61,486 nucleotides of DNA from an uncultured Gammaproteobacteria bacterium (GCA_964511375.1 CAZEEW010000007.1:1-61486), one strand, 5' to 3'. Counted from the first letter of the stretch, positions 103 to 61,486 are shown. Program-made: numbers and translations. The notes: generated by a model from the sequence alone, not told the origin.

Positions 103-120
103 GGTTGCTTGAAGTGGGAT

Positions 121-509: not shown

Positions 510-535
510 CCACACCCCACTCGACGGGGGTGTGG
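510..535 (-). terminator. hairpin just downstream of rny
   Basis: CCACACCCC (510-518) pairs with GGGGTGTGG (527-535), a 9-bp perfect stem. The following U-tract on the minus strand is only moderate. Confidence 0.45.
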
Positions 536-541
536 AAACAA

Positions 542-2421: not shown

Positions 2422-3090
2422 ATGAAAGACTTTGTTTTAATCAATAAACCAGTCAGTTGGACCAGCTTCGATGTGGTCGCCTATATAAGGAATAGGATTC
2501 GGGCGACTAGTTCAGAAAATAGTAAGATAAAAGTTGGCCATGCTGGGACGCTTGACCCATTTGCTTCCGGCTTGCTTATCGTCGGCATTGGACGGGAAGC
2601 AACCAAAAGAATTGATGAGTTTAAGGTTTTGCCAAAGACCTATATCGCCACTATTGAGTTGGGGGCAGTTTCTGACACCTTAGATTCAACTGGTAATATT
2701 ATTCAAAAGGCTGTTCCGGAAAGCGAGCGTCCAGATTTTGAGATGATTGAAAGATTAACAAAAAAGTTTGTTGGTAAACAATTCCAAGTGCCGCCGATGT
2801 ATTCAGCCAAGAAGGTCAGTGGAAAAAGATTGTACATGCTAGCCCGGCAGGGGGAAGAAATAAAACGTGACCCCGTGGAAATCGAAATATATAATCTCAA
2901 GATTATAGATTATACTTGGCCGATCCTGAAAATCGAAGTCACTTGCTCAGCCGGTACATACATTCGTACCCTGGCGGATGATTTAGGTCGCAAATTGGGG
3001 GTCGGGGCATTCTGTAAAGAACTGATTCGTACAGCAATCGGCGATTACCATGTACAGGAGTCGGTTAGTCCAAAGGATTTTTTGCTCTAA
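2422..3090 (+). CDS. truB: tRNA pseudouridine(55) synthase TruB
   Basis: 222 aa with the catalytic-Asp motif GHAGTLDPFASGLL and typical TruB order. Confidence 0.9.
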   Translation: MKDFVLINKPVSWTSFDVVAYIRNRIRATSSENSKIKVGHAGTLDPFASGLLIVGIGREATKRIDEFKVLPKTYIATIELGAVSDTLDSTGNIIQKAVPESERPDFEMIERLTKKFVGKQFQVPPMYSAKKVSGKRLYMLARQGEEIKRDPVEIEIYNLKIIDYTWPILKIEVTCSAGTYIRTLADDLGRKLGVGAFCKELIRTAIGDYHVQESVSPKDFLL

Positions 3091-3130
3091 ATTTGACTTT
3101 TGGAACTTAAAGAGTATAATGTACGTTACT

Positions 3131-29608: not shown

Positions 29609-30274
29609 ATGCCTGACCAGGAAAATTCAAGCGTCGGTTTAACTAAAGAGCAAAAAACCGGTTTTGTCTTGCTTTTGGTTTTTGCACTTTTGGCCGTTGG
29701 TCTTGGAATAATGCAAATTAGAAATACTATTTACGGACCGTTTTCTTTAAACAAAAGCATCCCACTGTCTGTTAAGGATGAATTGGATCCAACTGTAACT
29801 TTAAAGTTTCGGGATACAGATAAAGACGGGTTAAATGATTTTGATGAAATTTATGTTTATAACACGAGCGCTTATTTATTAGACAGTGATTCCGACGGTA
29901 TTTCGGATAAATCTGAACTAGAAAAAGGCAGTGATCCGTTGTGTGCAGAAGGTAAAAGTTGTGAAGGTCCGATTATGAAAGGAGATGTTACCCTAACCAA
30001 TGGATTTGCTAGCAGTTCGTTGGCTACTTCCGGGGTTGACCCGAGTGCCGTGGCTGTCCAGCCAGTAGATTTGGCAACCATGCTACAAAATCCGGTGGAA
30101 GTGCGTAAAATGTTAGTCGAAGCCGGGATGGATGTGAAAATTTTAGACAGTATTACAGATAATGAATTGTTAGTCATGGTGGCAGAAATTTTAAACTCTA
30201 CTTCAACCATACAGAGCTTGGAAAGTATTAATAAACTTATGCCAACGAGCTCAAATAGTATTATTGGGCAATAA
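29609..30274 (+). CDS. membrane-anchored protein with thrombospondin-type-3-like Asp repeats
   Basis: 221 aa with one TM helix and DTDKDGLNDFDE and DSDSDGISDKSE repeats. Confidence 0.5.
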   Translation: MPDQENSSVGLTKEQKTGFVLLLVFALLAVGLGIMQIRNTIYGPFSLNKSIPLSVKDELDPTVTLKFRDTDKDGLNDFDEIYVYNTSAYLLDSDSDGISDKSELEKGSDPLCAEGKSCEGPIMKGDVTLTNGFASSSLATSGVDPSAVAVQPVDLATMLQNPVEVRKMLVEAGMDVKILDSITDNELLVMVAEILNSTSTIQSLESINKLMPTSSNSIIGQ

Positions 30275-30287
30275 TAATATAGTTTCT

Positions 30288-36200: not shown

Positions 36201-38624
36201 TTTTGGCAAGAAAATCTATCTTCAGAACGACCGTCTTTTGAAGCCTTTAATCTTTCAAAGTGTAATTTGTATAGCGATATAGAAGGCGAAGATTATAACG
36301 CCATGGGTATGAGGTTGATCTTTGACGGAAATACAGGACTTCTTAAGAAATTTTGGTCGAAAAGCTGTGACGCTTCTGCTAAGTCAGGTGGTATCAAGGT
36401 CAAATTAAATGTTTATCTCACAGAAGTTTGTGAGGACGTAAGAAAAGTTGTTGATACAGAAAGTACTGATGCAAAAAACGAGCCATTCGGTATTAAGGCT
36501 AAAGCTCGAACCGATAGAATATGGAAGAATAGTAAATATAAATTAGGTGGTGATCCCGAAGCTTCTGTTTTGTCCCTTTCCTACGATCAGATGTTCACGC
36601 CGTTTGGTTCTTTTAACCGGGATAAAGATCCAAATATTACAAGTTTGAAAACCTATCTTAATGCGGCTACATCAAAAAATGATAAACCGACAATGGGAGA
36701 AAAAATAAACAGGTTATCAAATGCTGGGTACTGGCCAATTTGGTTAGCACCCGGAGGTGGTACCCCTTTAAATTGCGCCAATAAAAATGGCGGTTCGTGC
36801 GGCGGTGGCTCTTATTGTCAGGACATGCCAAACGGAGAAATAGTACCTTGTGATCCTGAAGAAAACGACGGAAGACCTTTAGTCTGTCGAGTCCCAGTAG
36901 AATCTACTTGTGAGTTGCGCCCTAATATAAATGTTTGTACAGGTGGACCAAAAAATCAACTCACATGTAATAATAACGCTGATTGTAATACGTCGGGAGT
37001 CGTGGTTACATGTCAAGAGCCCAGACGTCAAAGTGCCTGTTTGGTAGGTCTCTATGATGGAGATTTTTATAACACACGCTTGCCGTGTTCCAGTTACAAT
37101 AGTATTCTGCTAGACAATGTATTTTTAGATCGTTGGGAATCCTACGAGACCTCTGCTAACACTTGTGCAAGATATCCTCAGGTTAAGAGACTTGTAGAGG
37201 AGCTTTCAAACGGTGACAACCATGTGAACGGACTTGAAATTACTTGTGGTGTTAATGACGGCAATAAATTGATGGATACCAGTGGGCGCATACTAGATTA
37301 CAATGATACCAATACAGTGTCTGGGGTGAAGTTTTGTGGGCTTCAAGCAGAAGGAGAAAGTAATTACACTTATTATCCTACTAGGGCACAAACTTGTAAC
37401 GCGGCATCAGATTGTAGTATCACCGAGCAGTTTCTTTGTGAACCTTCAGAAAATAATGATAGAAAATTTTGTAATGGCGGACAGAGAATGGGGTATGATT
37501 GTACTGATAAGGATGATGATTACTGTCGAACTGTAATATACGATGGTATAACTTCGGTTGGGTACGCTTCTCATCGTTGTGTTAATACTGAAGGCACAGC
37601 TGGCTATTGTATTGGTGGAGAAAGGCATGGACTGGTTTGCGCCGGTAATACTGATTGTCCGGCAAAAACTTCTACTGGCATAAATGGCCAAACTATCAAC
37701 GAATATGGTGTTTGTGTTGGTAGTACCCTAGACCCGGGGAAAACGGTGCCTTCTACAAGCCCGGTTGCTCGTTCAATGGAGAGGTTATATGAATTATTTG
37801 TATCTTGGTATGGAACGTGGAAATTTGATCAGGCCACTGGAAGATACGCAGAAAATGATACAGGAGGAATTTTCGATGGAAGTATAACAACACGTACTAA
37901 TGATTACGAAACAGGATGTAATGGTAATGGTTATCCGAATGAACACGGGTGCAATAAGAATGCCAACGTTAATTATAAAAAACCAGAAATTCATGCTGTA
38001 AAAAGACCGGGTGTACAGAAGAATATATGGGGTGATGTTAACACTTTCTCGTTGAATGCTAACGATGGTAAAAAGGAAGTAAGAATTACTGGAGGCGGGG
38101 CTGTAAATCTTCAATTTTTTGCCTACGCAGACAACAATCAGATGCCTTTGACTCGTATTAAGGTTGACTGGGGCGACAGTACCTCTCCCTATATTACACA
38201 GGGTTGGTTTAAAAATCACAAATTGATCTGTAATCCAGGTAGATCATACATGTTTTGTGGAAATGGAACTAATTTTAACATGCCTTGTAAAACTACAGAC
38301 GATTGTGGAGAAAATGGAGAATGTAACTCAGAGGGTTCAGAGGCGAGGCTGTTTTTTGGGAATTCGGGTGATGCTTGTCAGGAAGGTTATTTTGAATTCA
38401 CTCATTATTATAGTTGTACTGAAGGTGGACCAGGTTGGGTGGCAAGTAGAAATCAATGTGAATTTGTGCCTCGGGTTCAGGTAATGGATAATTGGGGGTG
38501 GTGTAGCGGAAGTTGTATAACAGGCGGAGGGTGCTATAATGGAGCCCCAAAGCAGTGCGATAATACGATGTTTGTTAATGATCATTGGGTAAATTATGGT
38601 AATAAAATAATAATAAAACCTTGA
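30288..38624 (+). CDS. giant (~2778 aa) secreted Cys-rich surface protein with CBM-like and PKD-like modules
   Basis: Uninterrupted 8.3-kb frame. Signal/TM region ILTVIIFVLIGSFGFARPANA, recurring G-C-[STA]-x-[YFL] motifs, a CBM4/9-like jelly-roll (~33255-33655) and a PKD-like KVDWGDS near the C-terminus. ATG 30288 is preferred over TTG 30264. Confidence 0.8.
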   Translation: MPERFRRASLGAILTVIIFVLIGSFGFARPANAGFPVTVLADLQSQMEQVYAMIKENLMQAILQGAINAVSSAMKKIAYDSAVWLASGGKGQSPFAHTNSFGDYMEEVADDAGGRFIETLGDSLHMNLCNIPDVRADLKLRIGLKQRYDPSTAVKRECKFSEFIENWSSGDNWASQYGSEDALLKRFNASIVMEDTDFGIYLDSAVKLDQTITRQQDAAKSERLEGGGWKSLTSLISGDILTPSQQIQHEANANLPSEQNKRNEQQIGFAMGSGAFQIIPTTLSTFLNTLSSQMLKNFQTKGILPFGMCVGGYGGEHCKGNDPESYEGARVGGRRAAEALFADYLNVKVHSVSDYPVLDEFVACDDGYNASPNNCTVDQSFAKAIEEARYSDPLTIKQAVEQGLLNGSWKLISPKNKALNNDKNCRNTAFCYNNIKKLRLAGILPLGFEIAALNADPDTPASLDDYLKGFDDCNYVDPNNKALGVLNDQSNKPFCHLIDPNWILKVDSARCNAKVYGNEVAPNGDGSRMEECVDMSTCVGYNPDGSCYSYGYCLRSQNYWDFDLDKCDRQYATCDVYSDKNGNSVSYLSRTLQTEDCTKENAGCTAYSLLRVGGAWMNPVTPSAQGAITIFGAGGGSFLIPSYENAAVHFNDSVDTSCSAQSAGCSAFKVSSSQNTVLSLKKAPDYLYCYDADVATRGIQWPVTFADLQRVKNNASPECSNYTGVCIPNEVGCALYTPLSFVGRDIPGKFKPAEVVSGQLVWNDQCDKSCVGYDAYKEMPSTYASGHDPVYIIPGDAAACRIEDEGCSSFTNLSTTAGQQEKVEYYSYLRSCVKPGPNVSQKNFYTYEGSVVGGYQLQVFTLQSENGAPKYSYRDQAEKTRLEAQCTPELYRKGQASPDCRQFNDEAGNIYYALLSKTIVVSDQCTPYRLNSSDFPPGQCYQNGEYRDGFCYYYGLPAGVESKAGASRSCSASVESCRAYKGNSANRTQKLFEDTFEAGTPEAALSGWNQSNGGSISQSPESTRRGEHSLGFSGNSSFSRTVNVRPGRSYILSFWAKGNSPSLNVEFQNSTGNFGRVGVGATWQNYRLGPTEYTGTATSTVIRFSVSGSTQVYVDNVELVEVTDYLYLVKNKLTVPDVCDSNKLDDQPGEALGCSAYRSSGTQNNEFYLTGFSYLCRDEALGCTALLDTYNTVDDPGPSAYNVWFSGAGGSLVKKTIQGKEYSCQIQAGKDGCYVNIQGVEASVIDAISGVSFVTSSQYIPADTPSSTPIYLVANQAGSCNAVDLGCTLAGKQEFGPRGAQYTTTTIKNLPANYSSSLCTNEAVGCTAYGFNQGTTYFKDPKIFGNKVCEYKTGVSVDSVKSNGWFWKGVGKCSNTASTNSFCESDKDCEIFNAGLIGGATSKCQNIGSQPCYSDYVQNGEYGLWSSGNEDKYQNFVGECPSSQSSCTEFVDHNKGANVSYYFLQNEKLKTKQDACQGQVSEKLGCILLDQTDQPSKYWSTASTYLLSEKNGFASVTPDSTGTKDANLIVKVTQNRKCAEWLACNSSQTVFDPDTNSYKEVCIDLGICNKAQLSDTIIGQCASWVDTSKADSSGQVIKNKMLTNNGSGYNYLRRDVSFYGKDFTGYSLFNSYQIDDLSSSPIGSKGLGFKINNTTYVSPSNASTTVASSCRGYPEPFSPFPFEAKFNSQIAPRTCSEGENCDCSYTKGVFGDSNETIEKYYSLGKVFGPEGVCRGGLDVEGGSKDGLACLSNEDCLDDRIIVKDYLGIAATASNGTCMQRRKEESKKYTGWQGYCLDFNANTAHCDLWFPIDTPSNSVNRYNLFSSAGYLPADSSGKYWCLQAKGNSNIGTGNGSYKYTTRVDDNYLLNQYFWDYWASSNDWNMVIPRSQHVRKTWVDIEIPANEQENKLHYSEIVAVGIEPTSRVGGTDRFKSEIFIFRDQQVNGKQIDRGVYWASPLEITLNGDLVMEFFWQENLSSERPSFEAFNLSKCNLYSDIEGEDYNAMGMRLIFDGNTGLLKKFWSKSCDASAKSGGIKVKLNVYLTEVCEDVRKVVDTESTDAKNEPFGIKAKARTDRIWKNSKYKLGGDPEASVLSLSYDQMFTPFGSFNRDKDPNITSLKTYLNAATSKNDKPTMGEKINRLSNAGYWPIWLAPGGGTPLNCANKNGGSCGGGSYCQDMPNGEIVPCDPEENDGRPLVCRVPVESTCELRPNINVCTGGPKNQLTCNNNADCNTSGVVVTCQEPRRQSACLVGLYDGDFYNTRLPCSSYNSILLDNVFLDRWESYETSANTCARYPQVKRLVEELSNGDNHVNGLEITCGVNDGNKLMDTSGRILDYNDTNTVSGVKFCGLQAEGESNYTYYPTRAQTCNAASDCSITEQFLCEPSENNDRKFCNGGQRMGYDCTDKDDDYCRTVIYDGITSVGYASHRCVNTEGTAGYCIGGERHGLVCAGNTDCPAKTSTGINGQTINEYGVCVGSTLDPGKTVPSTSPVARSMERLYELFVSWYGTWKFDQATGRYAENDTGGIFDGSITTRTNDYETGCNGNGYPNEHGCNKNANVNYKKPEIHAVKRPGVQKNIWGDVNTFSLNANDGKKEVRITGGGAVNLQFFAYADNNQMPLTRIKVDWGDSTSPYITQGWFKNHKLICNPGRSYMFCGNGTNFNMPCKTTDDCGENGECNSEGSEARLFFGNSGDACQEGYFEFTHYYSCTEGGPGWVASRNQCEFVPRVQVMDNWGWCSGSCITGGGCYNGAPKQCDNTMFVNDHWVNYGNKIIIKP

Positions 38625-50075: not shown

Positions 50076-50103
50076 TTGACATTTTTCTTAATTTTGCTAC
50101 AAT
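50076..50103 (+). promoter_or_regulatory. tRNA-Ser promoter
   Basis: TTGACA (50076-50081), a 16-nt spacer and TACAAT (50098-50103), about 30 nt before the tRNA. Confidence 0.55.
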
Positions 50104-51749
50104 TAGTCCACCTTAAGAGACATAAAACTCTTATGGAGAGGTGGCTGAGTTGGTCGAAAGCGGCACACTGCTAATGTGTTATACAGCCTTAAAACTGTAT
50201 CGAGGGTTCGAATCCCTCCCTCTCCGCCAGATGTCCAAGTTAGAACCTTAGAATCATCAAGGGTTTCCGAACCTTTTGAAGGCTTCGGAGGGTCGAACTT
50301 AGACAATTGTAAATCCATGAGAACATCAAAGACTGGCGTCCAGATAGGCGTCAGTTTTTGGTTTTTAACCGTGAACCCATCAAAGCAAAGCTTCAAGATT
50401 GTGCGTTTTTGGTAGATACCACCCTTTTGGAATACCTTGTCTGCATGATCCGTAAAGTCCAGTAACTCATTAAACTTCTGAACGAATTTGTCAGACTTAC
50501 CCTCGAGCTCAGATAGACGGTCCTGATACATTTCCTTCTCCTTTAAAAGCTCATCCTGAATCTTTATAAAGACCTCTGCATCAATGATGCGTTTTGAACG
50601 ATCCATGACGATATTGCGAATTTGTTGCTGGATTCTGACTAACTCCTGCTTGAGACTTTTTCGTTCTTTTTCCTCCTGCTCAAGCCTTTCTTTTGCAAAG
50701 AATTGGAAATAAGAATCAAGCACCTTTTTGAACTTATCCGGTAACTGGACTCGTGACAAATAGGTCACTGCTTGCTCCTCGATTTGCTCAGATCGAATGT
50801 ATTTCTTTTCCGGACAGTGTGGATCACGGCGATGACTGCAATTGTAGTAAAGATGACCTTTTTTGACCTGACCACTCAACATAGAACCGCAATAAGCACA
50901 CCTCATGAACCCAGTAAGAGGAAAAGTGTGCTTGCGAGACCTGTCGGCGTAATGATTATGCTGGGCGATAATCTCTTGAACATCATCGAATGCTTTCTTT
51001 GTGATCAATGGTGGAAAGTTTGCCTGATTGGTAGCTGATCGAGTTTTTATAAGACCATAGTAGATGGTGTTTTGAAGCATTCTCTCGACATTCTTTTTTG
51101 AAATGTTTTTGCCTGATTTACTTTTGAGACCACGCTTGGCCAACTCGTCTCGGAGCGTGTAATAAGAGAACTTGCCGGTTGCGTACAGATCAAAAGCCAT
51201 CTTCACATAAGGTGCCCTGATATTATCCACTATAAGAGATTTGGTCTTTTTATCATTCGTATATCCAATTGGTGCATATCCCGGAAACCTACCACGCTCT
51301 ACGGCCTCTTTAAGGCCTTTCCTGACCTCCCAGCTGATGTTTTGAGATGTCCATTGAGCAATCGAAGCCATGATGTTTTCGACCAGCTCACCGGAAAAAG
51401 ACTCATCGAACTGCTCAACAACCGAGATGACTTTACAGTCGTGCTTTTTGAGCATCATTTTAATGGCGGCGTAGTCTGCCACATTTCGGCACATACGATC
51501 CAATTTGTGAACCAAGATCACATCAACCTTATTGTCTGTCTTCGCACGATGAAGCATTTTCTGAAGCTGTGGACGATCGGTGGTTCTTGCCGATTCACCC
51601 TTTTCTTCGTAGACACCATCGGGAAGTAAACTCCAATGGCGATCCATTCCATATTTCTGGCACGCTTTGACTTGTGCCGGAATACTCAATTCTCGTTCGG
51701 CCTGACGAGAGGTAGAAACACGGCCGTAAATTAAATAATTTGTACTCAT
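50103..51749 (-). CDS. large serine recombinase/integrase (C-terminal ~42 codons run antisense through the tRNA-Ser gene and its promoter)
   Basis: Catalytic YGRVSTSRQ, a recombinase domain, the zinc ribbon CAYCGS...YYNCSH...HCPEK and a coiled coil. The ORF has no stop until 50103. Confidence 0.85.
   Translation of the reverse strand: MSTNYLIYGRVSTSRQAERELSIPAQVKACQKYGMDRHWSLLPDGVYEEKGESARTTDRPQLQKMLHRAKTDNKVDVILVHKLDRMCRNVADYAAIKMMLKKHDCKVISVVEQFDESFSGELVENIMASIAQWTSQNISWEVRKGLKEAVERGRFPGYAPIGYTNDKKTKSLIVDNIRAPYVKMAFDLYATGKFSYYTLRDELAKRGLKSKSGKNISKKNVERMLQNTIYYGLIKTRSATNQANFPPLITKKAFDDVQEIIAQHNHYADRSRKHTFPLTGFMRCAYCGSMLSGQVKKGHLYYNCSHRRDPHCPEKKYIRSEQIEEQAVTYLSRVQLPDKFKKVLDSYFQFFAKERLEQEEKERKSLKQELVRIQQQIRNIVMDRSKRIIDAEVFIKIQDELLKEKEMYQDRLSELEGKSDKFVQKFNELLDFTDHADKVFQKGGIYQKRTILKLCFDGFTVKNQKLTPIWTPVFDVLMDLQLSKFDPPKPSKGSETLDDSKVLTWTSGGEGGIRTLDTVLRLYNTLAVCRFRPTQPPLHKSFMSLKVD
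50135..50229 (+). tRNA. tRNA-Ser (anticodon GCU), class II long variable arm, CCA encoded
   Basis: Hand fold: acceptor GGAGAGG/CCTCTCC, D stem GCT/AGC, anticodon stem GCACA/TGTGT and loop CTGCTAA. The variable arm is ATACAG/CTGTAT, the T arm is GAGGG-TTCGAAT-CCCTC, the discriminator is G and CCA follows. Confidence 0.92.
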
Positions 51750-51794
51750 AATGTTTGCTATAAAAAACAGCAGGGCTCTTGGCGAGCCCTGGGG

Positions 51795-52541
51795 TTAGTA
51801 TTTTTTTATGTGATAAATTAACCGACCTATTAACTTGGCATCTCTGCCCGAATAACTTTTTTTGAAACCATGCTCGCTGGTGACGATTTCCAAGAAGTCA
51901 CCACGCTTCTTGTAGTGAGTCATCAACAAACCATCTGGCGTGGAAAGCACGACAATGTCTCCGTCATTAACTTCAATATCCGCATCTAGCATAATCAGGT
52001 CGCCTGCGATTATGCTTGCTTCCGGAAATTGAATATCGGAAACACGAACACCGAAAATTCTATGCCCTCTGACTATTCCATTTTTCGGTATAAAAATAAA
52101 TTCATCGGCGTGCTTCAAATGCAGATCAAGGTCTTCAACTGGAATGGAACTGAATAGTGGCATTTTATAATGAGCCACCTCATCAGCGGTGATCGTCTTT
52201 TTTAACTCCTCTAAACCTGCCTCCAGTTTGTGAGTCATCTCTTCGACACGCTTCTCGCCAGCATCTTTGATGTTGAATTTGTAGTCACTTGAGATACTGA
52301 CTTTATGAATCTTGGATTCGGTCCACTGTTTTCTTAATTCTTCCTCAGAAACCTCGTAGGCGTTGGCCAAAACGGCCAACTGTTTCTGGGAAGGGAGCCG
52401 GGTGTCGTTTTCCAACTGGGAAATATAGCTAGCAGAAAAGCCAAGGCGATCAGCGATATCCTTGGCCGTCCATTTATTAGTTTCTCTTTGTTTTTTTAGA
52501 TATGAGCCAAATGACATATTTTTTATAATTAATTTATCCAC
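51795..52541 (-). CDS. CI/LexA-like repressor (XRE HTH plus S24-like C-terminal domain)
   Basis: GTG start. HTH region WTAKDIADRLGFSASYISQLEND. The C-terminus aligns by eye to the LexA/CI S24 domain (GDLIMLD..NDGDIVV). Confidence 0.75.
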   Translation of the reverse strand: MDKLIIKNMSFGSYLKKQRETNKWTAKDIADRLGFSASYISQLENDTRLPSQKQLAVLANAYEVSEEELRKQWTESKIHKVSISSDYKFNIKDAGEKRVEEMTHKLEAGLEELKKTITADEVAHYKMPLFSSIPVEDLDLHLKHADEFIFIPKNGIVRGHRIFGVRVSDIQFPEASIIAGDLIMLDADIEVNDGDIVVLSTPDGLLMTHYKKRGDFLEIVTSEHGFKKSYSGRDAKLIGRLIYHIKKY

Positions 52542-52584
52542 TGCTTAATTCCATCTTAGTATAGTATAGCAAATCTGTAAAGAT

Positions 52585-52645
52585 TAAGCAAATATGCTTA
52601 TCCACATTAACACTGATTGACGAATTAAGCAAAATTGCTTAATAT
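52585..52645. promoter_or_regulatory. divergent switch region with two palindromic operators and the cro promoter
   Basis: TAAGCA-AATA-TGCTTA (52585-52600) and TTAAGCA-AAAT-TGCTTAA (52625-52642). The second sits between TTGACG (52617-52622) and TAATAT (52640-52645). Confidence 0.55.
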
Positions 52646-52669
52646 GACTATAGAGGTCTAAATAAGACA

Positions 52670-52882
52670 ATGAATATGAAAAAAACGCCAACCAACATTC
52701 GACTGAGGGAACTTAGAATCGAGAAAGGGCTAACGCAATACAAACTAGCCCGCATTCTTGGTTTTAAGCATAACACAGCGATCAGTCGATATGAGACCGG
52801 TAGAAAACGGCCTAACTTGGAAACCGCCCAGAGAATTGCCCTAGCGTTGGGGGTGAAAGTAGAAGATATTTTTTTGCCTTAG
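52670..52882 (+). CDS. Cro/XRE-family HTH regulator
   Basis: 70 aa with LRIEKGLTQYKLARILGFKHNTAISRYETG. Divergent from the repressor. Confidence 0.75.
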   Translation: MNMKKTPTNIRLRELRIEKGLTQYKLARILGFKHNTAISRYETGRKRPNLETAQRIALALGVKVEDIFLP

Positions 52883-52960
52883 AAGTTAAGCAATTTTGCT
52901 AAACCAAAGAGGTGTGTGAGGTCAATAAAAGTGTGAGGTCACTCTTATGAACCAAACCAC

Positions 52961-53239
52961 ATGTCCAAACCAACAAAGGATGAGGAAGCTCTTATTGAGC
53001 TTACCAAAAATGCCTTGTCTGATGTTCTTGGCCGAGAGCCGAGCAAGCAAGAAGTTTGGCGTGTCCATGCTGGCTTCAAACGCATGGCATTCATGCTGTT
53101 GGAGCATTTGGATCACATCAAAAAATATGAGAATCAAAATCTTGATGACGAGGATCTTCTGCAGGATAGCCAAGAGGTTGAATCGAAAACCTTTGACGAG
53201 GAAGTTTCTCTTGGCGAGGAGAGAGGCAATATTGAATAG
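52961..53239 (+). CDS. hypothetical acidic protein
   Basis: 92 aa. It has the most protein-like composition of three overlapping ORFs here. A possible 34-aa TTG-started ORF (53232-53336) follows, with a GGAGAGAGG RBS. Confidence 0.4.
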   Translation: MSKPTKDEEALIELTKNALSDVLGREPSKQEVWRVHAGFKRMAFMLLEHLDHIKKYENQNLDDEDLLQDSQEVESKTFDEEVSLGEERGNIE

Positions 53240-53436
53240 CTTCACAATCGGTGAACTTGAAAATCCGATAACCGCACAAAGCGTCCGGGAGGCTCTTGAA
53301 AATATAGACAAAGCGTTAGTCAAGGCGAAGCTATAGACCGCACATCCCTCTCCTCTTAATGGGTGGTGACATTGAGAGGAGCGATGAGGCGCGATCTCAG
53401 AGTCTGGTCAACTCGCACGCCTATATTTTCATTGCC

Positions 53437-54003
53437 ATGCAAGACGAAAAAGCAAAAGTCAGAGATGTCCGGAATGGCGATTGGTATTGGATTAGTAAAG
53501 TAGTCCTTGATGAATACGGAAAGAAAATCCAACCAATCGGCATTGCCATATACAACTGTTTGGCGGAGTACGCCAATCAGGAGGGTTTTTGTTTTCCATC
53601 ACACAAACACATAGCTGAAAAAATAGGATCGAGTATTTCAAGTGTGCAAAGAGGTATACGAATTCTTATCAAACTTGGACTGATCAGCAAGAAGCGAAAG
53701 CGACTCCACAATGTGTACTACCTGTTGAAAATAGATAGGTCAGATAGACCGAACTCAAAACAGATCGGTCAGTCAGACCAGCACATCGGTCATATAGACC
53801 GGTCGGATCGGTCCATGGGAACTACTAACAATAATAAATATAAATATTTAAATAAAAAGAATTACGAGCAACTTCAAAATTTCAAAGAACTAAGGTCGAT
53901 GTTAGCCGAGAAAATGTCCATTGACGGAGCAAAGATCAAAATTATTGATGGCAAAAAGCATCTATGGACTGGCCGAGGATGGGAGGCGGTCGAGGATACT
54001 TAG
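53437..54003 (+). CDS. winged-helix/HTH replication-initiator-like protein
   Basis: FPSHKHIAEKIGSSISSVQRGIRILIKLGLI looks like a wHTH. A low-complexity DRSDR linker is encoded by iteron-like DNA. Start taken at ATG 53437. Confidence 0.5.
   Translation: MQDEKAKVRDVRNGDWYWISKVVLDEYGKKIQPIGIAIYNCLAEYANQEGFCFPSHKHIAEKIGSSISSVQRGIRILIKLGLISKKRKRLHNVYYLLKIDRSDRPNSKQIGQSDQHIGHIDRSDRSMGTTNNNKYKYLNKKNYEQLQNFKELRSMLAEKMSIDGAKIKIIDGKKHLWTGRGWEAVEDT
53735..53858. repeat. iteron-like repeats plus A/T tract (candidate origin inside the rep-like gene)
   Basis: ATCGGTC at 53764, 53785 and 53807; ATAGGTC at 53735; ATAGACC at 53744 and 53794. A pure A/T run follows at 53830-53858. Confidence 0.4.
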
Positions 54004-54012
54004 ATTGCCTTG

Positions 54013-54040
54013 AAGTTCGGGAGTGGTCGAGCCCGGACTT
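54013..54040 (+). terminator. hairpin after the rep-like gene
   Basis: AAGTTCGGG pairs with CCCGGACTT with one G:U pair, followed by a T-rich sequence. Confidence 0.4.
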
Positions 54041-54109
54041 TGATTGTTCGTTTATTAATAATTTATGATCGAGGATTTCTAAAATAGAAACCTTAAGAAA
54101 AAAAACAGT

Positions 54110-54400
54110 ATGGACAAAGATGAATCAAATGTCGGCAATTGTCCTCATTGCACGAAAATAATCTTTCGTGATGCGGTGTTCAATTCCGAGGCGGTATTTG
54201 TGACCCGTTGTCCCCACTGTCAGAAACCCGTAAAAGTGTGCATACGAAAAAGAGTGGAAATAATACTTCTCCCGTTGGATGATCGAAAAGGAAAAGACAA
54301 TACCGGGATAACCAAGCTGACCATTATTGTCTTTGTCCTGTATCTTCCAGCCCTTAGTACTTTATCGAATTGTTTGGATCTCTTTGACGGATTGATCTGA
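54110..54400 (+). CDS. small zinc-ribbon protein with C-terminal hydrophobic segment
   Basis: 96 aa with CPHC...CPHC pairs. Convergent with the minus-strand operon. Confidence 0.35.
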   Translation: MDKDESNVGNCPHCTKIIFRDAVFNSEAVFVTRCPHCQKPVKVCIRKRVEIILLPLDDRKGKDNTGITKLTIIVFVLYLPALSTLSNCLDLFDGLI

Positions 54401-54478
54401 CTAAAACAACCCCACAATGCAAAAGGAGCCCTTTTTGAGCCCCTTTTTTGCCGTTTGTTTGCCCTTGTGGCGAGCTTT

Positions 54479-54655
54479 CTACAGATCTTCCGACAATTCC
54501 ACCGCATCATCCTCATCAAGACTGTATTCCTCCATAATTTCCTGAACATGCTCGGCTTCTTCCTTGTCGAGATCGTGACTTTCCATTAACTCCGCCACCT
54601 CTTCGGTGGGAGCATCATCACCCCGTTCTTCGTTATTTTCAAAATCATCCGCCAT
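54479..54655 (-). CDS. 58-aa hyperacidic protein (not in the ORF track)
   Basis: Hand translation gives MADDFENNEERGDDAPTEEVAELMESHDLDKEEAEHVQEIMEEYSLDEDDAVELSEDL, with 26 D/E and 2 K/R. The ATG lies 1 nt after the nuclease stop. Confidence 0.5.
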   Translation of the reverse strand: MADDFENNEERGDDAPTEEVAELMESHDLDKEEAEHVQEIMEEYSLDEDDAVELSEDL

Positions 54656-54656
54656 A

Positions 54657-55409
54657 TTACTTTTTAGAATTTATTGTTTTTATATAATTGCAGTAATCAC
54701 AATCAGGACTAGCTTCTGGTATCTCCAGACTATTCAAGCATGTATGTGCCTTTATCAGAGTTTTCTCAACCCAAGAATCATCGCCCTCATAAGGGATTAA
54801 TGTGATATCAAATTCCAGCTTGCCATCAAACGCCTTGCGGTCAGTTTGACCGTTACAGTAAACAAAATATCCGGTATTAGAAACCTTGTAACCATTTTGT
54901 CTCAAGAGCCACTGGTAGACTTCCATCTGCCTCTTATAGCCATCCTGCCAGTCCTTGTTTAATTCGGTAATGTCCTCCTCCTTAGATGTGGATTTGTAAT
55001 CAACAACAATGTATTCGCCCTTAGAATTAATCCAAAGATCATCGATCGCACCAAAGACGAGAAAATTCGTCAGAGGATGCAGATGTTGAATGCCGGTAAA
55101 GTTATGTCGCCATTTGTCCAGATCTGCATGAGCAACCGGTTGGGCATCAACGCCGTATTTTTTAATCAATGGGTGCTTTGTGCCATTCGCACGATGAATA
55201 TCGAATTCTAATTTTAAGAGATGGTCGACAGCCGAATTTAATGCAAAAGGAAATCCCGGTGGCCTACCGACACCGAGTTTGCGATCGTAATAAAAGCATC
55301 TCGGACAACTAATAAACAGATCAATCTTTGATCGTGATAATTTAAAAGGCTCATCAATTTTTGAATCGTATAGACCCCTGACTCTTTGTGCTGTGTAGTA
55401 TTCCGACAT
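54657..55409 (-). CDS. Cas4/RecB-like PD-(D/E)XK nuclease with Cys cluster
   Basis: GAIDDL ... IVVDYKST (D...D-x-K core). An N-terminal CPRC plus a C-terminal C..C-x2-C arrangement resembles the Cas4/AddB Fe-S nuclease family. Confidence 0.65.
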   Translation of the reverse strand: MSEYYTAQRVRGLYDSKIDEPFKLSRSKIDLFISCPRCFYYDRKLGVGRPPGFPFALNSAVDHLLKLEFDIHRANGTKHPLIKKYGVDAQPVAHADLDKWRHNFTGIQHLHPLTNFLVFGAIDDLWINSKGEYIVVDYKSTSKEEDITELNKDWQDGYKRQMEVYQWLLRQNGYKVSNTGYFVYCNGQTDRKAFDGKLEFDITLIPYEGDDSWVEKTLIKAHTCLNSLEIPEASPDCDYCNYIKTINSKK

Positions 55410-55410
55410 A

Positions 55411-58386
55411 TTATATTTGACTTCTTATTGAGATTTGATATTTCTTTTTTCTTTTTGCGAACGCAGGTTCGCCACCCTCAAGTATGTTACAAACTTGTTC
55501 GATTATTCCATCCTCAAATTTTTCAACTTCCACATCAGGAATTTTTCTTGCTTGATCCTCAAGAGAGCCAGAGCAATATTCGAGTTTTGGTGTTCGTTTG
55601 CCATTATAGTTTGCGACAACTATCTGTTCTGCGTCAGTGTTTACAACAAGGTTGGGGTTGTGTGTAACCATTATAATCTGTCTGTATTGTTTCCTGTCTC
55701 TAAAATACTCAATTAAATCCCTGTACACAGAAAGATTATCAAGATTTTCTTCAGGTTGATCGATAATTAATGGTCTGTAATCAGCCTCGTCAATTTTTAG
55801 ATATAAAATTAAAAGGATAATCCCTTTTTGCCCGGGTGATAGCAAATATAGATCAGTGTCGTCAAATTTAAGTGAGGAAATAATCTCAAAGTAGGTAGGG
55901 TCAAAAAGCCAATTAAAGAAATCCTCAAGATTATGGTTTTCTCTTAATTGATCCTCAATAAGAATCTCTTTCTCCTCGAATATTGAAAAATTATCCAAGG
56001 TCGCTTTTAATTTTGTCTCCAGAATAGATAAATCAAATTCATGTCTTATGAACTCATCCGAATGTTCACTAAGAACCTTTTTTAAGCTGTCAATTTCTCT
56101 GAAATTTCCTTTGCGTGATCTGTCGATAATATCAAGACCTGCTTTGTTTTGAAGCTCGAGTCGATAATTAATCTGTGCTTCAAAAACCAATTTTTTATCA
56201 GTATCTGTTCCTGCCAAAAGTGAATCTTGCAAAGGTTTATATAACTCTTCCATTTTAGATTTTTCACTTTTAAGCAACTCAAAATAAGCACTATAAGTCT
56301 CAAAGCGTTCTTTTTCTAAGCGTTCTTTTTCCGGAGTCGACTCTAATTTTATACGAGCAATTTCTCCATCGATTGCTTTAATAGAGCTCTCTACGGTTAG
56401 GATGGTTTTCTTTTGTTGTTGGTATTTTAATTTTGTGGTTTCAAAAGCCCTTGTTTCTTTTTGCTTATCTTCTATGCCTTTATTTAATTCCTGTAAATTA
56501 ATAAAAGGTAATTCGGATTCTTCGATAGATAGTAATATCGCAACCTCTTTCTTTTCTCCTTGCCTGATCGTTTTAAGCTGTTCGGCAATTGCATTTTTTT
56601 CCGCATCAAGAGCCTTTTTGATAGCATCCTCATCAAAGGTGACATCAAATACGCTTGATTCCGATATATCTAAACCAGTAAGCAAAACACCAATTTCATC
56701 CTTAAATTCTTTAATTTTAGATTTAAAAATTTTAACTTTAGTTTCAACATCATTAATCTTATTTAGCTTGCCCTGAAGTTCTACTATTTTCGTCTCAAAC
56801 TTTTTCTTTACTTCGGATAGCTTGGCAAGTTCTTCTTGACCCTTTTTGTCCTCGGCTGGCAATTCTGGCAAGCTCTTATTTAATCGTTCGAGTTCAGCCT
56901 TCTTTTCTCCGAGCTGTTTTTCTTTCTCTGGTAAATTTCTAAGTATTGATACAAGGTCACCAATTTTGTGATTAATTTCGTGAATTTTTTCTACAACCTG
57001 TTCTTTTTCATATTTAAAACCACTAAGTATCCGGGTTCTTAATTCGTCAAAATCAGATGCTCCCATCCTTTCCGTATCGTCAAGTTTTTGAAAAATAACA
57101 TTTTCAATCTGCTTCTGTAATTTTTCACTATTACGATGAGAACAAAGATCTTCAACCGCTCCCTGTGGTAAATACTGGACAAGTCCCTGATCCTCTGTAA
57201 GCTTACCAACTTCAAATTCTGTCAGTGATCCGTCTACCCAGTCAATTTTAATTTTAGTTCCAGCTATGGAATTTTTATGTTTTGAGGCTTTCTTTAAAAA
57301 TGCATCCTCGCTGTTATCTTTACTGCCTGCTCCATAAGCTATTGCTTCAGCTAAGGCTGATTTACCTGATCCACGCCCTCCAATAACCGTGATTAAGTCA
57401 CGATTTAATTCCAACTCAAAGTTATCAGCAAACCATCTATTAGATTGAGGAATTGATATCTTTTTTATTACCTTGTGGTCGGGCTTAAGATTGGGAGGGG
57501 TATCGCCTATAAAAACTCTAGCATCGGGTTCGTTGAGTACTTGCTTGAGACCTGCGAATGTCGGATCAGCCTTAACCCAAAGCATCGATTGACCGACACG
57601 GTCGAGTTTGTGTGCGTCAGAGGAATGCAAAACAATATTATTTAATTTATTTGTTTCTAAGTCCTGACGGTTTTCGCTTATTTTGGATGGATCATCAAGA
57701 GAAGTAAGACAAAAATTTGCAGAATTTATCAAATCTCTTTTTTCAACAGCTGATTGATCCCATCGCGAATGATCCCATTCGGAATAACCTATTGCAGTTA
57801 CAAATTTTCCGGTAAAACAATTTTTATTTAATAATCCATAGATTGCATCTCGGTCATAGGTAATATTATCAAACCCTACCTCAAGGTCTGTCTTACTGTG
57901 TACGGTATTTCCTGTTGGAGCCGCCGCTTTAATTTGCTTACCAAGATCTTCCAAGGATCGTCTTGTCGGGGTTTGTTCCCATTTAGTGTTATCTTCTATT
58001 TTGTATCCACTTGAAAGACAATTTAAAAGCTGATCTCGAATATCTTGTATGCTAACACTAGGATCAAATAATACATGAAAATTGTGTCTGCGCGTATTAT
58101 TAGCTGTTCCGCTAAAAGTGTTTAGTCTAAACTCTATATTTGGAATTAATAATTCAATGTTTGAAAATTCACTCCTTCTTGTAAGTAGATATTCATACCC
58201 ATCACAAAATAAATAATCGGTGACTGCGATTACCTTTACTTCGGGAGGCAATGACGCTATTTTTAATATAAACGCATCCCAGACAGCCTTTGTGTCTCCG
58301 CCGTATTCTTGGATTATAGATTTTGGAGTGTGAACATGGAGGTCCCACTTTCGCCACTCTGATCCTTTTGGGTATGGATTACTCAT
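55411..58386 (-). CDS. PHP-domain phosphoesterase fused to a Rad50/SbcC-like ABC ATPase with inserted coiled coil
   Basis: PHP motifs WDLHVHTP, HNFHVLF and HSSDAH in aa 1-~290. Walker A GGRGSGKS (57358-57381). An E/K-rich coiled coil spans ~aa 440-800. Signature-like LSPGQKG, Walker B LIIDQPEE (55747-55770) and H-loop MVTHN follow. Confidence 0.75.
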   Translation of the reverse strand: MSNPYPKGSEWRKWDLHVHTPKSIIQEYGGDTKAVWDAFILKIASLPPEVKVIAVTDYLFCDGYEYLLTRRSEFSNIELLIPNIEFRLNTFSGTANNTRRHNFHVLFDPSVSIQDIRDQLLNCLSSGYKIEDNTKWEQTPTRRSLEDLGKQIKAAAPTGNTVHSKTDLEVGFDNITYDRDAIYGLLNKNCFTGKFVTAIGYSEWDHSRWDQSAVEKRDLINSANFCLTSLDDPSKISENRQDLETNKLNNIVLHSSDAHKLDRVGQSMLWVKADPTFAGLKQVLNEPDARVFIGDTPPNLKPDHKVIKKISIPQSNRWFADNFELELNRDLITVIGGRGSGKSALAEAIAYGAGSKDNSEDAFLKKASKHKNSIAGTKIKIDWVDGSLTEFEVGKLTEDQGLVQYLPQGAVEDLCSHRNSEKLQKQIENVIFQKLDDTERMGASDFDELRTRILSGFKYEKEQVVEKIHEINHKIGDLVSILRNLPEKEKQLGEKKAELERLNKSLPELPAEDKKGQEELAKLSEVKKKFETKIVELQGKLNKINDVETKVKIFKSKIKEFKDEIGVLLTGLDISESSVFDVTFDEDAIKKALDAEKNAIAEQLKTIRQGEKKEVAILLSIEESELPFINLQELNKGIEDKQKETRAFETTKLKYQQQKKTILTVESSIKAIDGEIARIKLESTPEKERLEKERFETYSAYFELLKSEKSKMEELYKPLQDSLLAGTDTDKKLVFEAQINYRLELQNKAGLDIIDRSRKGNFREIDSLKKVLSEHSDEFIRHEFDLSILETKLKATLDNFSIFEEKEILIEDQLRENHNLEDFFNWLFDPTYFEIISSLKFDDTDLYLLSPGQKGIILLILYLKIDEADYRPLIIDQPEENLDNLSVYRDLIEYFRDRKQYRQIIMVTHNPNLVVNTDAEQIVVANYNGKRTPKLEYCSGSLEDQARKIPDVEVEKFEDGIIEQVCNILEGGEPAFAKRKKKYQISIRSQI

Positions 58387-58391
58387 ATATT

Positions 58392-61300
58392 TTATTCGTT
58401 ACCCCAATCCTTGCACAAGACTTCGGCTTGCTCTAAAACAGTCTTTGTGGCTTGTTCTTGTTTATCTGGCGGATAACCGTATTTATTTAGTAATTTCTTA
58501 ACATAGACACGAAGCTTGGCTCGAACCTGCTCTTTTAGCGTCCAGTCAATCGTGGTATTTTTGCGTAACATAGCAACCAATTCCTGAGCAATCTTTTTGA
58601 GAGTATCGTCTCCAATTTCCATAATCGCACTGTCGTTCTCACAAAGAGCATCGTAAAAAGCAATCTCGTCCTCTGTAAGATTTAATTCATTACCTCGTTC
58701 TTTTTCTTCCCGAATCTTTTTTGCCAACTCTACTAATTCAGCAATCACTTGAGCCGCCTCAATGGTTTGGTTTTGGTATTTTTTAATTGTCTCCTCAAGC
58801 ATCTTCACGAATGATCGAGATTTGACCAAATATTTCCTCTGCATTGTTCGAATCTCGTCATTCAAAAGTTTCTTCAATAATTCAAGAGCAATATTTTTGT
58901 GCTCAAGATTACGAACCTCTTCCAAGAATTCATCAGACAAGACTGCGATATTGGGAGATTTTAATCCGGCCGCATCAAAGACATTGACGACCTCATCAGA
59001 AACAACAGCATTGGATACAATCTGTTTGATTGCCTGATCATAGTCTTCCTCTGTCGGTCCGCCTTGGCCACCATTTTGATCAAATTTGCGGATAACAGCA
59101 CTGACGGCCTGAAAGAACGCCACATCATCCCTGATTTGCAGTGATTCATCGCTAGGAACAGCCAATGAGAAAGCATGAGATAATTCAGTAACAGCTTTAA
59201 GATATCGTTCTTTGCCCTTATCGAGACTCAAGACATAATCCATTGCACCAGAAATGACTCTTGTCTTTTCTGAAGCTTTGGATGAGAAATAAGCTGAATA
59301 ATCAAATTGATGATACAAAGCTTTGACGATCTCATATTTTTCCAACATGACTGAAACTGCTTCCTCCTGCGGAATAGTAGGAGTTTCCTTGTCGTTATCA
59401 GCATAATAAGAAAGGGCTTCTTTGAGGGAGGGAGCAATACCAAGATAGTCCACGATCAGACCGCCTTGCTTGTCTTTATAAATACGATTCACACGAGCGA
59501 TAGCCTGCATAAGTCCATGACCCTGCATTGGCTTATCGATATACATCGTATGTAGGATGGGCACATCAAAGCCGGTAAGCCACATATCACGGACGATCAC
59601 AAACTTGAGATCGTTCTTCGGATCTTTCATTCTTTTAGCAATAAGCTCTCGTTCGTCTTTAGTGTGGATGTGTTTTTGGAAATTTGCCGGATCACTGGCA
59701 GAGCCGGTCATCACAACTTTTATAAAACCTTTATTGATATCATCGCTGTGCCATTGTGGGCGAAGTTTGATAATTTCATCATACAGCTCAACCGCAATTC
59801 TTCGGCTCATAGATACAAACATACCTTTGCCCTCCATTGCGTCACGGCGAGCTTCAAAGTGATCAACTACATCTTTGGCGATCAGCTTGATGCGTTTATC
59901 AGAACCAACCATTGCTTCCAGCCGAGCCCATTTGCTTTTTAGCTTTTCTTTTTTCGCAACTTCTTCGCCCTCAGTCAATTCTTCAAACTCAGTATCAATG
60001 TGTGGCTTTTCCGATTCGGACAACTGGATTTTTGCCAAGCGTGCTTCGTAATAAATTGGAACAGTGGCATGATCCTCAACCGCACGAGAAATATCATAGA
60101 CATCAACATATTCTCCAAAGACTGCTCTGGTATTCTTATCGGATAATTCAATGGGAGTACCAGTAAAGCCGATAAAGGATGCACTTGGCAAAGCATCGTG
60201 CATATGACGAGCAAAGCCATCAATAAAATCATATTGACTTCGATGGGCTTCATCGGCAATCACGACAATGTTGCGTCTGTCGGACAATAGCGGATGTTTT
60301 TCGTCTTTATTTTCTGGGAGGAATTTTTGAATGGTGGTAAATATAACACCGCCGGAAGCAACACTTAATAATTTCTTAAGATCAGCTCGGTCTTGTGCCT
60401 GTGTGGGAGTTTGGCGAAGTAATTCATGACAGTTAGAGAACACGCCAAACAACTGATCATCAAGATCATTGCGGTCTGTAAGAATGACGAGCGTAGGGTT
60501 ATCTAATACCTGAATAATTTTGCCAGCATAAAATACCATTGTCAGAGATTTGCCAGAACCTTGAGTATGCCAAACAACGCCAGCCCTGCGGTCGCCTTTT
60601 TCTGAAGTGGCATCGATAGTTTTGACTATTGCTTTATTGGTAGCGTGATATTGGTGATAAGCTGCGAGTTTTTTAATTGTGGTTTCTCCGTCAGTTTCAA
60701 AGACGATAAAATTCTTTGCGATATCCAATAGATGGTTTTTGGTAAATACTCCCTTGATCAAAATTTCCATCTCCGGAATAGAAGCCGGAGCAACAGTTTC
60801 TCCGTCTATGGTTCGCCATTTCATAAAGCGTTCCATATTTGCCGTAAGCGAGCCGATGCGACTATCAATGCCATCACTGATTATACAAAGGGCATTATAA
60901 GTAAAAAGAGAAGGGATGTCTGACTTATAAGTTTGAATCTGATTGAAAGCATTTTTGACTGTGGCGTTAATATCGGCTGGATTTTTTAATTCAAACACAG
61001 CCAAGGGCAAGCCGTTAATAAAAATAACGACATCTGGACGGCGGTTGTGGTTATTTTCAATGACAGTATATTGATTGACCGCCAACCAGTCGTTATTTGA
61101 TAAATTCTTATGATCTACAAGATACACTTTGTCGCCGGCAATAGAGCCGTCATCACGGCGATACTCAACATCAACACCTTCGGCCAGCATTCTATGAAAA
61201 GCGTGATTTGTTTCCAAAAGACTCGGATTAGAATAAGCAACATTAATAACTTTTTTAATAGCATCCTCTTGGGCGTCTCGTGGAATATCGGGATTGATTG

Positions 61301-61475
61301 CTGAAACAGCGGATCGTAATCTGCCGATCAAAACAATATCTTTATACGACTCACGCTCTGGCGATTCACCATCAGGAGCAATGTTCGGTCCAAAGACAAT
61401 TCCAAAACCCAGCTCCTCAAGCCATTCGAGGGTTGCGTTTTCCAAATCTGATTCTGTGTATTTGTAGTTAGTCAT
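58392..61475 (-). CDS. hsdR: type I restriction enzyme R subunit
   Basis: 1027 aa. N-terminal PD-(D/E)XK region [19 protein letters not shown] and SF2 helicase motifs ([17 protein letters not shown]) are present. Confidence 0.9.
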
Positions 61476-61486
61476 AATTATTTTGA

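Follow-up and report, generated by a model that had tools for sequence, protein, structure and literature searches.

Positions 1-61486 of contig CAZEEW010000007.1 (assembly GCA_964511375.1, catalogued as an uncultured Gammaproteobacteria bacterium) were analysed as one stretch of 61,486 nucleotides, hereafter the window, at one end of which four adjoining minus-strand genes encode a type I restriction R subunit (HsdR), a TrlF-family fusion of a PHP-like domain to an ABC ATPase, a standalone nuclease related to Cas4 and AddB, and a hyperacidic peptide. The reading that we favour, and that we hold to be probably correct when taken as a whole, is that these four genes are a mosaic of separately exchangeable defence modules carried by an integrative element, for which we propose a mechanism of DNA-end processing. 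That the genes form a mosaic of separable modules on such an element is highly probable; the mechanism is a tentative proposal, drawn by analogy with the anti-phage protein Ppl and with the Cas4/AddB/RecE clan of nucleases. On this reading, a prophage-like element with a serine integrase would have inserted into a tRNA-Ser gene of a host whose genome appears to be that of a member of the Patescibacteria, probably Saccharibacteria-like. Its cargo arm would have been assembled by recombination from type I restriction-modification (R-M), TrlF and Cas4-like nuclease modules, the acidic protein would be a member of the element backbone, and the nuclease would be an optional partner both of TrlF and of numerous other defence genes. 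The four genes are:

58392..61475, minus strand: hsdR, type I restriction R subunit, 1027 aa (open reading frame table and profile models)
55411..58386, minus strand: TrlF-family fusion of a PHP-like domain and an ABC ATPase, 991 aa (open reading frame table, NF045780, motifs, AlphaFold2 model)
54657..55409, minus strand: standalone Cas4/AddB-type PD-(D/E)XK nuclease with a Cys cluster, 250 aa (PF12705, motifs, fold)
54479..54655, minus strand: hyperacidic peptide, 58 aa (composition, homologues, ratio of non-synonymous to synonymous polymorphism, pN/pS)

Comparison with related loci

Related loci, designated here by L numbers, were compared with the window using gene calls from a simple greedy open reading frame (ORF) caller. 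Those anchored on TrlF number 23 (10 genome loci, five contig look-ups and eight plasmids), and we refer to TrlF relatives that are at least 60% identical (n = 15) as close relatives. The closest of all, L008, lies on a Saccharibacteria chromosome and encodes a TrlF 94% identical to that of the window. The DNA shared by the two is one 8.2-kb block of 81% identity that reaches from 50199 to 58387 and ends at the TrlF start codon; in the place of hsdR, L008 carries a Dcm-type methylase, R.HinP1I and a Ymh-family gene. hsdR is thus a separate module, outside the block common to the window and L008. With L024 the window has only the backbone and the nuclease in common, the TrlF allele of L024 being 26% identical to that of the window.

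An R-M system stands co-directionally upstream of TrlF in nine of the 15 close relatives, either directly or with one small gene between them:

L001, L007, L111: type I R-M
L114, L115: HsdR-like helicase and methyltransferase-S fusion
L005, L008: type II R-M (BsuBI/PstI; HinP1I)
L010: SNF2 helicase and MmeI-type IIG enzyme
L004: SNF2 helicase and type III R-M

The other close relatives and all eight proteobacterial plasmid copies (26-30% identical) have TrlF as a solitary unit, in surroundings that include CBASS cyclase, AbiEii, NACHT, RES, caspase-like, ABC-3C, GIY-YIG and recombinase genes. Since TrlF follows R-M systems of any type or none, its link is to R-M in general and not to HsdR. A preliminary description of this DNA had considered an accessory or back-up nuclease complex of type I R-M; the tie to R-M operons is indeed strong for TrlF, but TrlF behaves as an independent module and not as part of a four-gene complex. 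On the plasmid pAcX50c of Azotobacter chroococcum (L107), a type I operon at 1-4697 with a PD-(D/E)XK gene between hsdM and hsdS lies about 2.3 kb upstream of the solitary TrlF, and toxin-antitoxin pairs, NACHT and RES genes are found nearby.

The nuclease gene directly follows TrlF in three of the 23 TrlF loci (L001, L008, L010). Among loci anchored on the nuclease, a TrlF-family gene precedes it in L024, L036 and L047, with L118 as a fourth case; the TrlF proteins of L024 and L036 score 495 and 473 bits, respectively, against the family model NF045780. Across these loci and the window the two genes repeatedly adjoin, separated by 1-6 nt, and the TrlF alleles involved include some that are only 25-33% identical to each other. 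In L007 a different PD-(D/E)XK-type protein (DUF2779) occupies the position of the nuclease after TrlF, and in the defence-associated clade of the nuclease TrlF is found upstream in approximately three of 23 nuclease-anchored loci, far above random expectation. Such recurrence would be consistent with a dedicated two-gene defence system that is independent of R-M and analogous to Lamassu, PARIS or Gabija, with TrlF as its sensor or motor and the PD-(D/E)XK protein as its effector. We consider this unlikely, as the great majority of TrlF genes in the independently sampled loci stand without the nuclease, including copies 66-76% identical to that of the window (L003, L005, L006, L007, L009), and as TrlF is followed directly by the acidic peptide in L116. 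Most nuclease copies are paired with other genes, TrlF has a predicted nuclease-type domain of its own, like the single-gene system Ppl, and the two genes have had different histories, as the following identities illustrate:

L001 versus L024: TrlF 33% (136-aa local match), nuclease 94%
Window versus L036: TrlF 25%, nuclease 76%
Window versus L010: TrlF 82%, nuclease 61%

This discordance argues that the pairing has been re-assembled by recombination and not inherited as a unit.

The integrative element and its backbone

The interval between the tRNA-Ser gene and the acidic ORF is occupied by genes that are common to sister elements, from which we conclude that an integrative element of prophage-like type carries the four genes as its cargo arm. 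The features of this interval are:

50135..50229, plus strand: tRNA-Ser(gct), integration site and element boundary (ARAGORN; sister homology)
50103..51749, minus strand: large serine integrase, ORF end overlapping tRNA-Ser (Pfam Resolvase, Recombinase and Zn_ribbon_recom; PHROG_95 integrase, 340 bits)
51795..52541, minus strand: CI-like repressor, helix-turn-helix (HTH) and S24 peptidase-like (Pfam HTH_3/HTH_31, weak Peptidase_S24; PHROG repressor, UmuD-like)
52670..52882, plus strand: Cro-like HTH regulator (PHROG transcriptional regulator families)
53359..54003, plus strand: replication initiator, HTH_36 (Pfam HTH_36; PHROG replication-initiation families)
54110..54400, plus strand: 96-aa Cys-rich, Zn-ribbon-like ORF, convergent with the cargo array (conserved backbone gene)

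A 92-aa ORF lies in the same interval. The sister elements share this backbone and lie against a tRNA-Ser or tRNA-Asp gene, and the 96-aa gene adjoins the acidic peptide in L008, L116, L118 and L120 as well. Homology to the DNA of the sister elements begins at 50197-50199, within tRNA-Ser, so that the attachment site falls in the 3' part of this gene. The integrase ORF extends about 95 nt into tRNA-Ser(gct) in antisense orientation and thus takes its last codons from tRNA sequence. The earlier proposal of an integrated element adjoining a tRNA is thereby upheld, with tRNA-Ser abutting the serine integrase and with CI-like, Cro-like and replication genes beyond it. ARAGORN also called a tRNA-Leu(tag) of 99 nt at 53961-54059, overlapping the 3' end of the replication-initiator ORF; as no such tRNA was called in the sister elements L008, L024, L116 and L118, this call may be a false positive.

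Neighbours of the nuclease and the acidic peptide

A survey of 93 nuclease-bearing loci shows the gene in a wide variety of surroundings. Besides TrlF, its upstream neighbours include an MmeI-type enzyme with an SNF2/PLD helicase, DUF4268, type III R-M with a reverse transcriptase, a UvrD/AddA-like helicase, a HerA-like anti-phage ATPase, the BPTD_3080 restriction enzyme and hsdR, and a trypsin-like protease, a TIR protein or an S49 peptidase is found downstream. Where the nuclease scores at least 450 bits against that of the window (25 loci), the neighbours belong mainly to R-M and defence families, namely ResIII (10), DEAD (6), SWI2_SNF2 (4), Eco57I (4), N6_Mtase (4), AAA_21 (4), N6_N4_Mtase (3) and RVT_1 (3). 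In the 46 loci with a nuclease below 420 bits they are mostly housekeeping genes (gyrB, cyclophilin, dehydrogenases, aminotransferases). One such distant homologue, in L085 (1255-5274), directly follows an intein-containing gyrB. L018 (3843-10051) contains a tight co-directional array of type III Mod and Res, a reverse transcriptase, the nuclease and TIR_2, with 5-nt gaps around the nuclease, and L012 (1504-9853) a co-directional series of SNF2/PLD helicase, MmeI-type IIG enzyme, nuclease and trypsin-like protease, with AbiEii further downstream and a faint portal-like match upstream.

The 58-aa peptide contains 26 Asp or Glu residues (44.8%) and two Lys or Arg residues. It has homologues in 26 clusters, and its pN/pS of 0.08-0.32 (five copies) together with these homologues identifies the acidic ORF as a real gene. 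The C-terminal core of about 40 residues is nearly invariant; in the window, L008, L116, L118 and L121 it reads PTEEVxELMxxHDLDKEEAEHVxEhMEE(Y)GLDEDDAVEL, which looks like two short helix-hairpin repeats of the form LDxxEA. The peptide had no family match in any library scanned (Pfam, PADLOC, NCBIfam, PHROG), and the automatic name 'CdvB/Snf7' given to it by the Joint Genome Institute (JGI) pipeline is probably a low-complexity artefact. It follows only two of 88 other nuclease genes (L008, L029). In L008, L116, L118 and L120 it is the final cargo gene and abuts the backbone of 96-aa gene, HTH_36 initiator, Cro, CI and integrase, while the gene before it varies: the nuclease in L008, TrlF without a nuclease in L116 and L117, and an S49 peptidase in L118 and L120. 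L121 is an exception, in that an unrelated 203-aa gene precedes the peptide and an S49 peptidase follows it, and the backbone was not seen there. The acidic peptide thus follows the backbone of the element and not any cargo gene, and its presence in L116, where the nuclease is missing, rules it out as a nuclease-specific partner or antitoxin.

These distributions bear on a further explanation, namely that the nuclease and the acidic peptide serve maintenance of the element or counter-defence, the nuclease acting in recombination and end-processing or as an anchor for cassette exchange and the peptide as a DNA-mimic anti-restriction protein or as a regulator. The nuclease stays with the backbone as the genes around it change (window, L008, L024, L118), its PHROG matches comprise exonuclease and Cas4-like families and one family of unknown function, it is present on five IMG/VR contigs, and its distant relatives among housekeeping genes suggest a general activity in DNA metabolism. 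The peptide tracks the backbone and not the cargo, and its composition resembles that of DNA-mimic proteins, a likeness of composition only. Against this explanation, the nuclease sits inside co-directional arrays with defence genes on both sides in unrelated contexts (R-M with trypsin; R-M with reverse transcriptase and TIR), a tblastn search with it against 50,697 sequenced phage genomes found nothing, and it accompanies TrlF also in the non-Patescibacteria metagenome-assembled genomes L001 and L010. We judge that maintenance or counter-defence is improbable as the role of the two genes, to about the same degree as the dedicated two-gene system. In a more speculative version of the mosaic reading, the conserved nuclease gene may itself act as a homologous-recombination anchor for the swapping of neighbouring defence cassettes; the comparative data show defence cargo shuffled cassette by cassette around this conserved gene on serine-integrase elements.

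Gene spacing in the array

The ORF table of the window reproduces the four minus-strand ORFs and the gaps of 5, 1 and 1 nt on which the preliminary description had built. The junctions read TAA-aatat-ATG, TAA-t-ATG and TAA-t-ATG, and no obvious Shine-Dalgarno sequence was seen at any of the three. The cargo arm is a single co-directional array that is probably co-transcribed. However, of the same-strand neighbour pairs outside the array, 15 of 35 are separated by 5 nt or less (median 8 nt). Gaps this small are common across the window, hence spacing alone is no proof of functional coupling, and the proposal that hsdR is translationally chained to its three partners loses its basis, as comparable gaps are the norm in this genome. 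That the four genes form one dedicated, undescribed four-component system chained to type I restriction, as first proposed from their co-directional, closely spaced arrangement and as the order hsdM-hsdS-hsdR-TrlF-nuclease in L001 might suggest, is very improbable and largely refuted by the comparative data: L008 has no hsdR and its homology ends at the TrlF start, the hsdR of L001 is only a distant relative of that of the window (140 bits), the TrlF/nuclease pairing is facultative, the peptide goes with the backbone, and all four genes occur together only in the window among the loci examined.

Identity of the encoded proteins

The assignments made beforehand, of a type I R subunit, a PHP phosphoesterase fused to a Rad50/SbcC-like coiled-coil ABC ATPase, a PD-(D/E)XK nuclease with a Cas4-like Cys cluster and a 58-aa peptide that is 45 percent Asp/Glu, are borne out by the profile and structure searches, with a reservation for the PHP part that is taken up below; the ATPase, which had been regarded as unrecognised, in fact belongs over its full length to the curated TrlF family and is related to the validated Ppl.

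The hsdR gene of the window is intact. Its product scores 635 bits against TIGR00348 (cut-off 285) and 1153 bits against the PADLOC model REase_I, and the Pfam domains HSDR_N, SWI2_SNF2, T1R_D3-like and T1RH-like_C are all present. In the related loci L001 and L111, hsdM and hsdS precede hsdR.

The 991-aa protein matches NF045780 (TrlF family AAA-like ATPase, a curated equivalog model) with 594.7 bits, above the cut-off of 350, and the match is collinear and full-length (residues 7-984 on model positions 1-944 of 944). Its scores against related models lie below their cut-offs, with 165.9 bits for NF045781 (Spaf_1101 family; cut-off 475) and, in partial matches only, 98.5 bits for NF042955 (Ppl_antiphage; equivalog cut-off 1000); the PADLOC Ppl model matches only the C-terminus, at 81 bits. 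In an alignment of 27 homologues (45-89% identical), the invariant positions of the N-terminal 300 residues are WDLHxHT, E84, H103 and SDAH, and those of the ABC part are the Walker A motif GGRGSGKS, Q407, the signature LSPGQ, the Walker B motif DQPE and H908 of the H-loop. The AlphaFold2 (AF2) model (mean predicted local distance difference test score, pLDDT, 82) shows a beta/alpha N-terminal domain, with the PHP-like domain at approximately residues 1-305, and an ABC head divided in two by a coiled coil of about 280 residues (long helices at approximately 445-723). Foldseek searches with this model returned SMC, Rad50, JetC, MukB, RecN and AriA at probability 1.0, with the ABC head dominating the whole-chain matches. 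Against PDB sequences, a profile search found Rad50 and AriA (E ~1e-6), a single-sequence search gave only marginal SMC matches, and a search with the N-terminal domain gave nothing useful. Motifs, predicted structure and fold matches agree that the C-terminal part is an SMC/Rad50-type ABC ATPase with an inserted coiled coil. No TrlF relatives were found in a scan of IMG/VR.

The 250-aa protein scores 50.9 bits against PF12705 (cut-off 22), while Cas4 models stay below their cut-offs at 31-35 bits (TIGR00372, 31.5 against 65). It carries the motifs GAIDD, VVDYK and QMEVY and invariant cysteines in the arrangement CxxC...C...CxxC. Its AF2 model (pLDDT 74, predicted template modelling score 0.76) matches AdnAB, AddB, MGME1, RecE, Cas4, EXO5 and ACE1 in Foldseek (E ~1e-4, probability 0.99-1.0) with modest template modelling scores; PDB sequence searches gave nothing useful. 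The protein is thus a PD-(D/E)XK nuclease of the RecB/Cas4/AddB clan, with conserved Cys ligands that may bind an iron-sulfur cluster. Neither the window nor any of the 93 related loci examined has cas genes next to it. It has at least 8000 homologues at E <= 0.001, of which the best 120 are 78-98% identical, and the named ones are nearly all from Patescibacteria; clustering of the family at 50% identity gives 382 representatives at E <= 1e-30. Two longer members, P0241 (749 aa) and P0322 (858 aa), were noted, and the two matched stretches in P0241 suggest tandem or fused forms.

Proposed mechanism

In the mechanism that we tentatively propose, unmodified incoming DNA would be cut by restriction, the new DNA ends would be sensed and clamped by the ABC and coiled-coil part of TrlF, and their 3' ends would be degraded by its PHP domain; the complementary strand would be processed by the Cas4-like nuclease where this is present. 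Behind R-M, TrlF and the nuclease would then form a portable nuclease layer for finishing or back-up. The Ppl-like architecture of TrlF, its Rad50-like head and its habitual place 3' of R-M operons are what led us to a model in which R-M ends feed TrlF. In function the set would resemble SbcCD/Mre11-Rad50 joined by an AddB-type nuclease, and its proposed role that of RecBCD, which in Escherichia coli acts after restriction. Our literature search returned no paper stating whether bacteria assigned to the candidate phyla radiation (CPR) lack RecBCD/AddAB.

Ppl is reported to be a single-stranded DNA 3'-5' exonuclease that is inhibited by nucleoside triphosphates bound to both its PHP exonuclease and its NTPase domain, and the inhibition is lifted by nucleotide depletion, 3'-OH ends left by phage homing endonucleases being the trigger (PMC12904381, a 2026 review). 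If the coupling to R-M is real, restriction cleavage, and not only phage homing endonucleases, would feed DNA ends to Ppl-like proteins, and a function would be assigned to the widespread TrlF family. A bolder and rather speculative version of the model casts TrlF as a finisher generally coupled to R-M, in which restriction ends of any type would activate a Ppl-like PHP exonuclease under a Rad50-like clamp, with the Cas4-like nuclease as an exchangeable partner that resects the other strand. The pair would be a portable RecBCD/AddAB-like stage for small-genome bacteria such as Patescibacteria, travelling with R-M on integrative elements, and could show how these ultra-small bacteria complete the destruction of restricted DNA.

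Several observations weigh against the favoured reading. We found no phage-defence experiment on TrlF, and the only TrlF paper saw no phenotype attributable to trlF (PMC7554251). The association of TrlF with R-M could stem from shared residence in defence islands and not from functional coupling, and the sample is small (tens of loci), with several loci from one element family. Within the window hsdR is the only type I R-M gene, its start lying 11 nt from the window edge, and an exact-sequence look-up of the HsdR protein returned no contig. Co-transcription is assumed; a promoter and terminator scan of 53900-61486 performed no better than on shuffled sequence. The remaining points concern the PHP domain. 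Pfam PHP (PF02811) matched neither the full protein nor the isolated N-terminal domain (E up to 10), PHP_C gave a weak match over the SDAH motif (E = 0.005-0.03), and hhalign comparisons with RNase AM and YcdX of E. coli aligned motifs I-III weakly (E ~0.02). The match of the N-terminal domain to the Ppl model is collinear (residues 251-304 on Ppl 199-252, E ~4e-8, in 13 of 13 sequences) but partial. In the clade of the window's TrlF, motif II is TDY, with Tyr in place of the canonical His, and the alleles of L116 and L118 have degenerate metal ligands (DLQTQT for DLHxHT, SDAR for SDAH). Divergent TrlF alleles, on the other hand, carry the canonical PHP motifs ITDH and G(I/V)E. Motifs and the collinear match to the Ppl model speak for a PHP-type N-terminal domain, though no PHP hidden Markov model gives a significant match, and the PHP half of the earlier assignment is probable. 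The TrlF-family alleles of L116 (3112-5997) and L118 (1387-4272), each of 961 aa, keep a Walker A-like GGKSTGKS and may be PHP-inactive variants.

Relation to described systems

In our assessment the locus joins parts of known kinds in a new way and is not a new kind of system. Its parts are closest to the following. Like Ppl, the single-gene anti-phage system of Gao et al. (2020), TrlF has an N-terminal domain predicted to be of the PHP type and a C-terminal ABC-type NTPase domain, with collinear matches, and is mostly a solitary gene in defence-rich regions. It differs in belonging to a separate family, as its 98.5 bits against a cut-off of 1000 indicate, in the long Rad50-like coiled coil, and in that the clade of the window is usually appended to R-M operons; its role in defence is proposed by analogy. 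The family is named after the temperature restriction locus trlR-trlF-trlG of Photorhabdus, where TrlF is annotated as a histidinol phosphatase and the phenotype mapped to trlG, not trlF (PMC7554251). The TrlF proteins of Photorhabdus and of the window fall into the same curated family, NF045780, but the window lacks TrlG (AlbA_2 and HATPase_c_4) and TrlR and has hsdR and the nuclease as neighbours instead.

The combination had been put forward as undescribed. This no longer holds for the nuclease, since standalone Cas4 was noted in 2017 to be over-represented in CPR bacteria and to adjoin R-M genes and helicases, and an ancillary role in defence was proposed (the portions of Hudaiberdiev et al., 2017, PMC5704561, consulted here). 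The window's nuclease resembles these solo Cas4/pfam12705 proteins of CPR and DPANN in being a standalone member of the Cas4 clan with a Cys cluster and no link to CRISPR; it differs in scoring below the Cas4 cut-offs, and neither a pairing with TrlF nor its extreme conservation amid changing neighbours is described in those portions of the paper. Within the reach of our searches, three features are not described: that TrlF is strongly linked to R-M operons whatever their type, that it pairs recurrently but facultatively with a Cas4-like nuclease, and that this nuclease is strikingly conserved amid changing neighbours.

A Rad50/SMC-like ATPase with a coiled coil, a putative metal-dependent phosphoesterase and a RecB/AddB-type, putatively iron-sulfur nuclease recall Mre11-Rad50/SbcCD and AddAB/AdnAB/RecBCD, with fold matches for both the ATPase and the nuclease. 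Unlike in these machines, the phosphoesterase here is predicted to be of the PHP type and is fused to the ATPase in place of a separate calcineurin-like Mre11/SbcD subunit; the set has no helicase subunit, and its genes lie on a mobile element in a defence array. Accessory genes are also found in type I R-M loci, as with the rlo genes of Campylobacter and PrrC/RloC. TrlF shares with these its place as a non-R-M gene in an hsd operon, but it also follows type II, IIG and III systems. Lamassu, PARIS, Gabija and Septu were rejected, in agreement with the preliminary description, the PADLOC scores being weak or partial (LmuB 13.8, AriA 31 in a partial match, GajA 13.4 and PtuA 13.1 bits) and no TOPRIM, UvrD or HNH partner being found among the four genes with Pfam and PADLOC. 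Outside the element, the host portion of the window contains a 2786-aa ORF at 30264-38624 on the plus strand.

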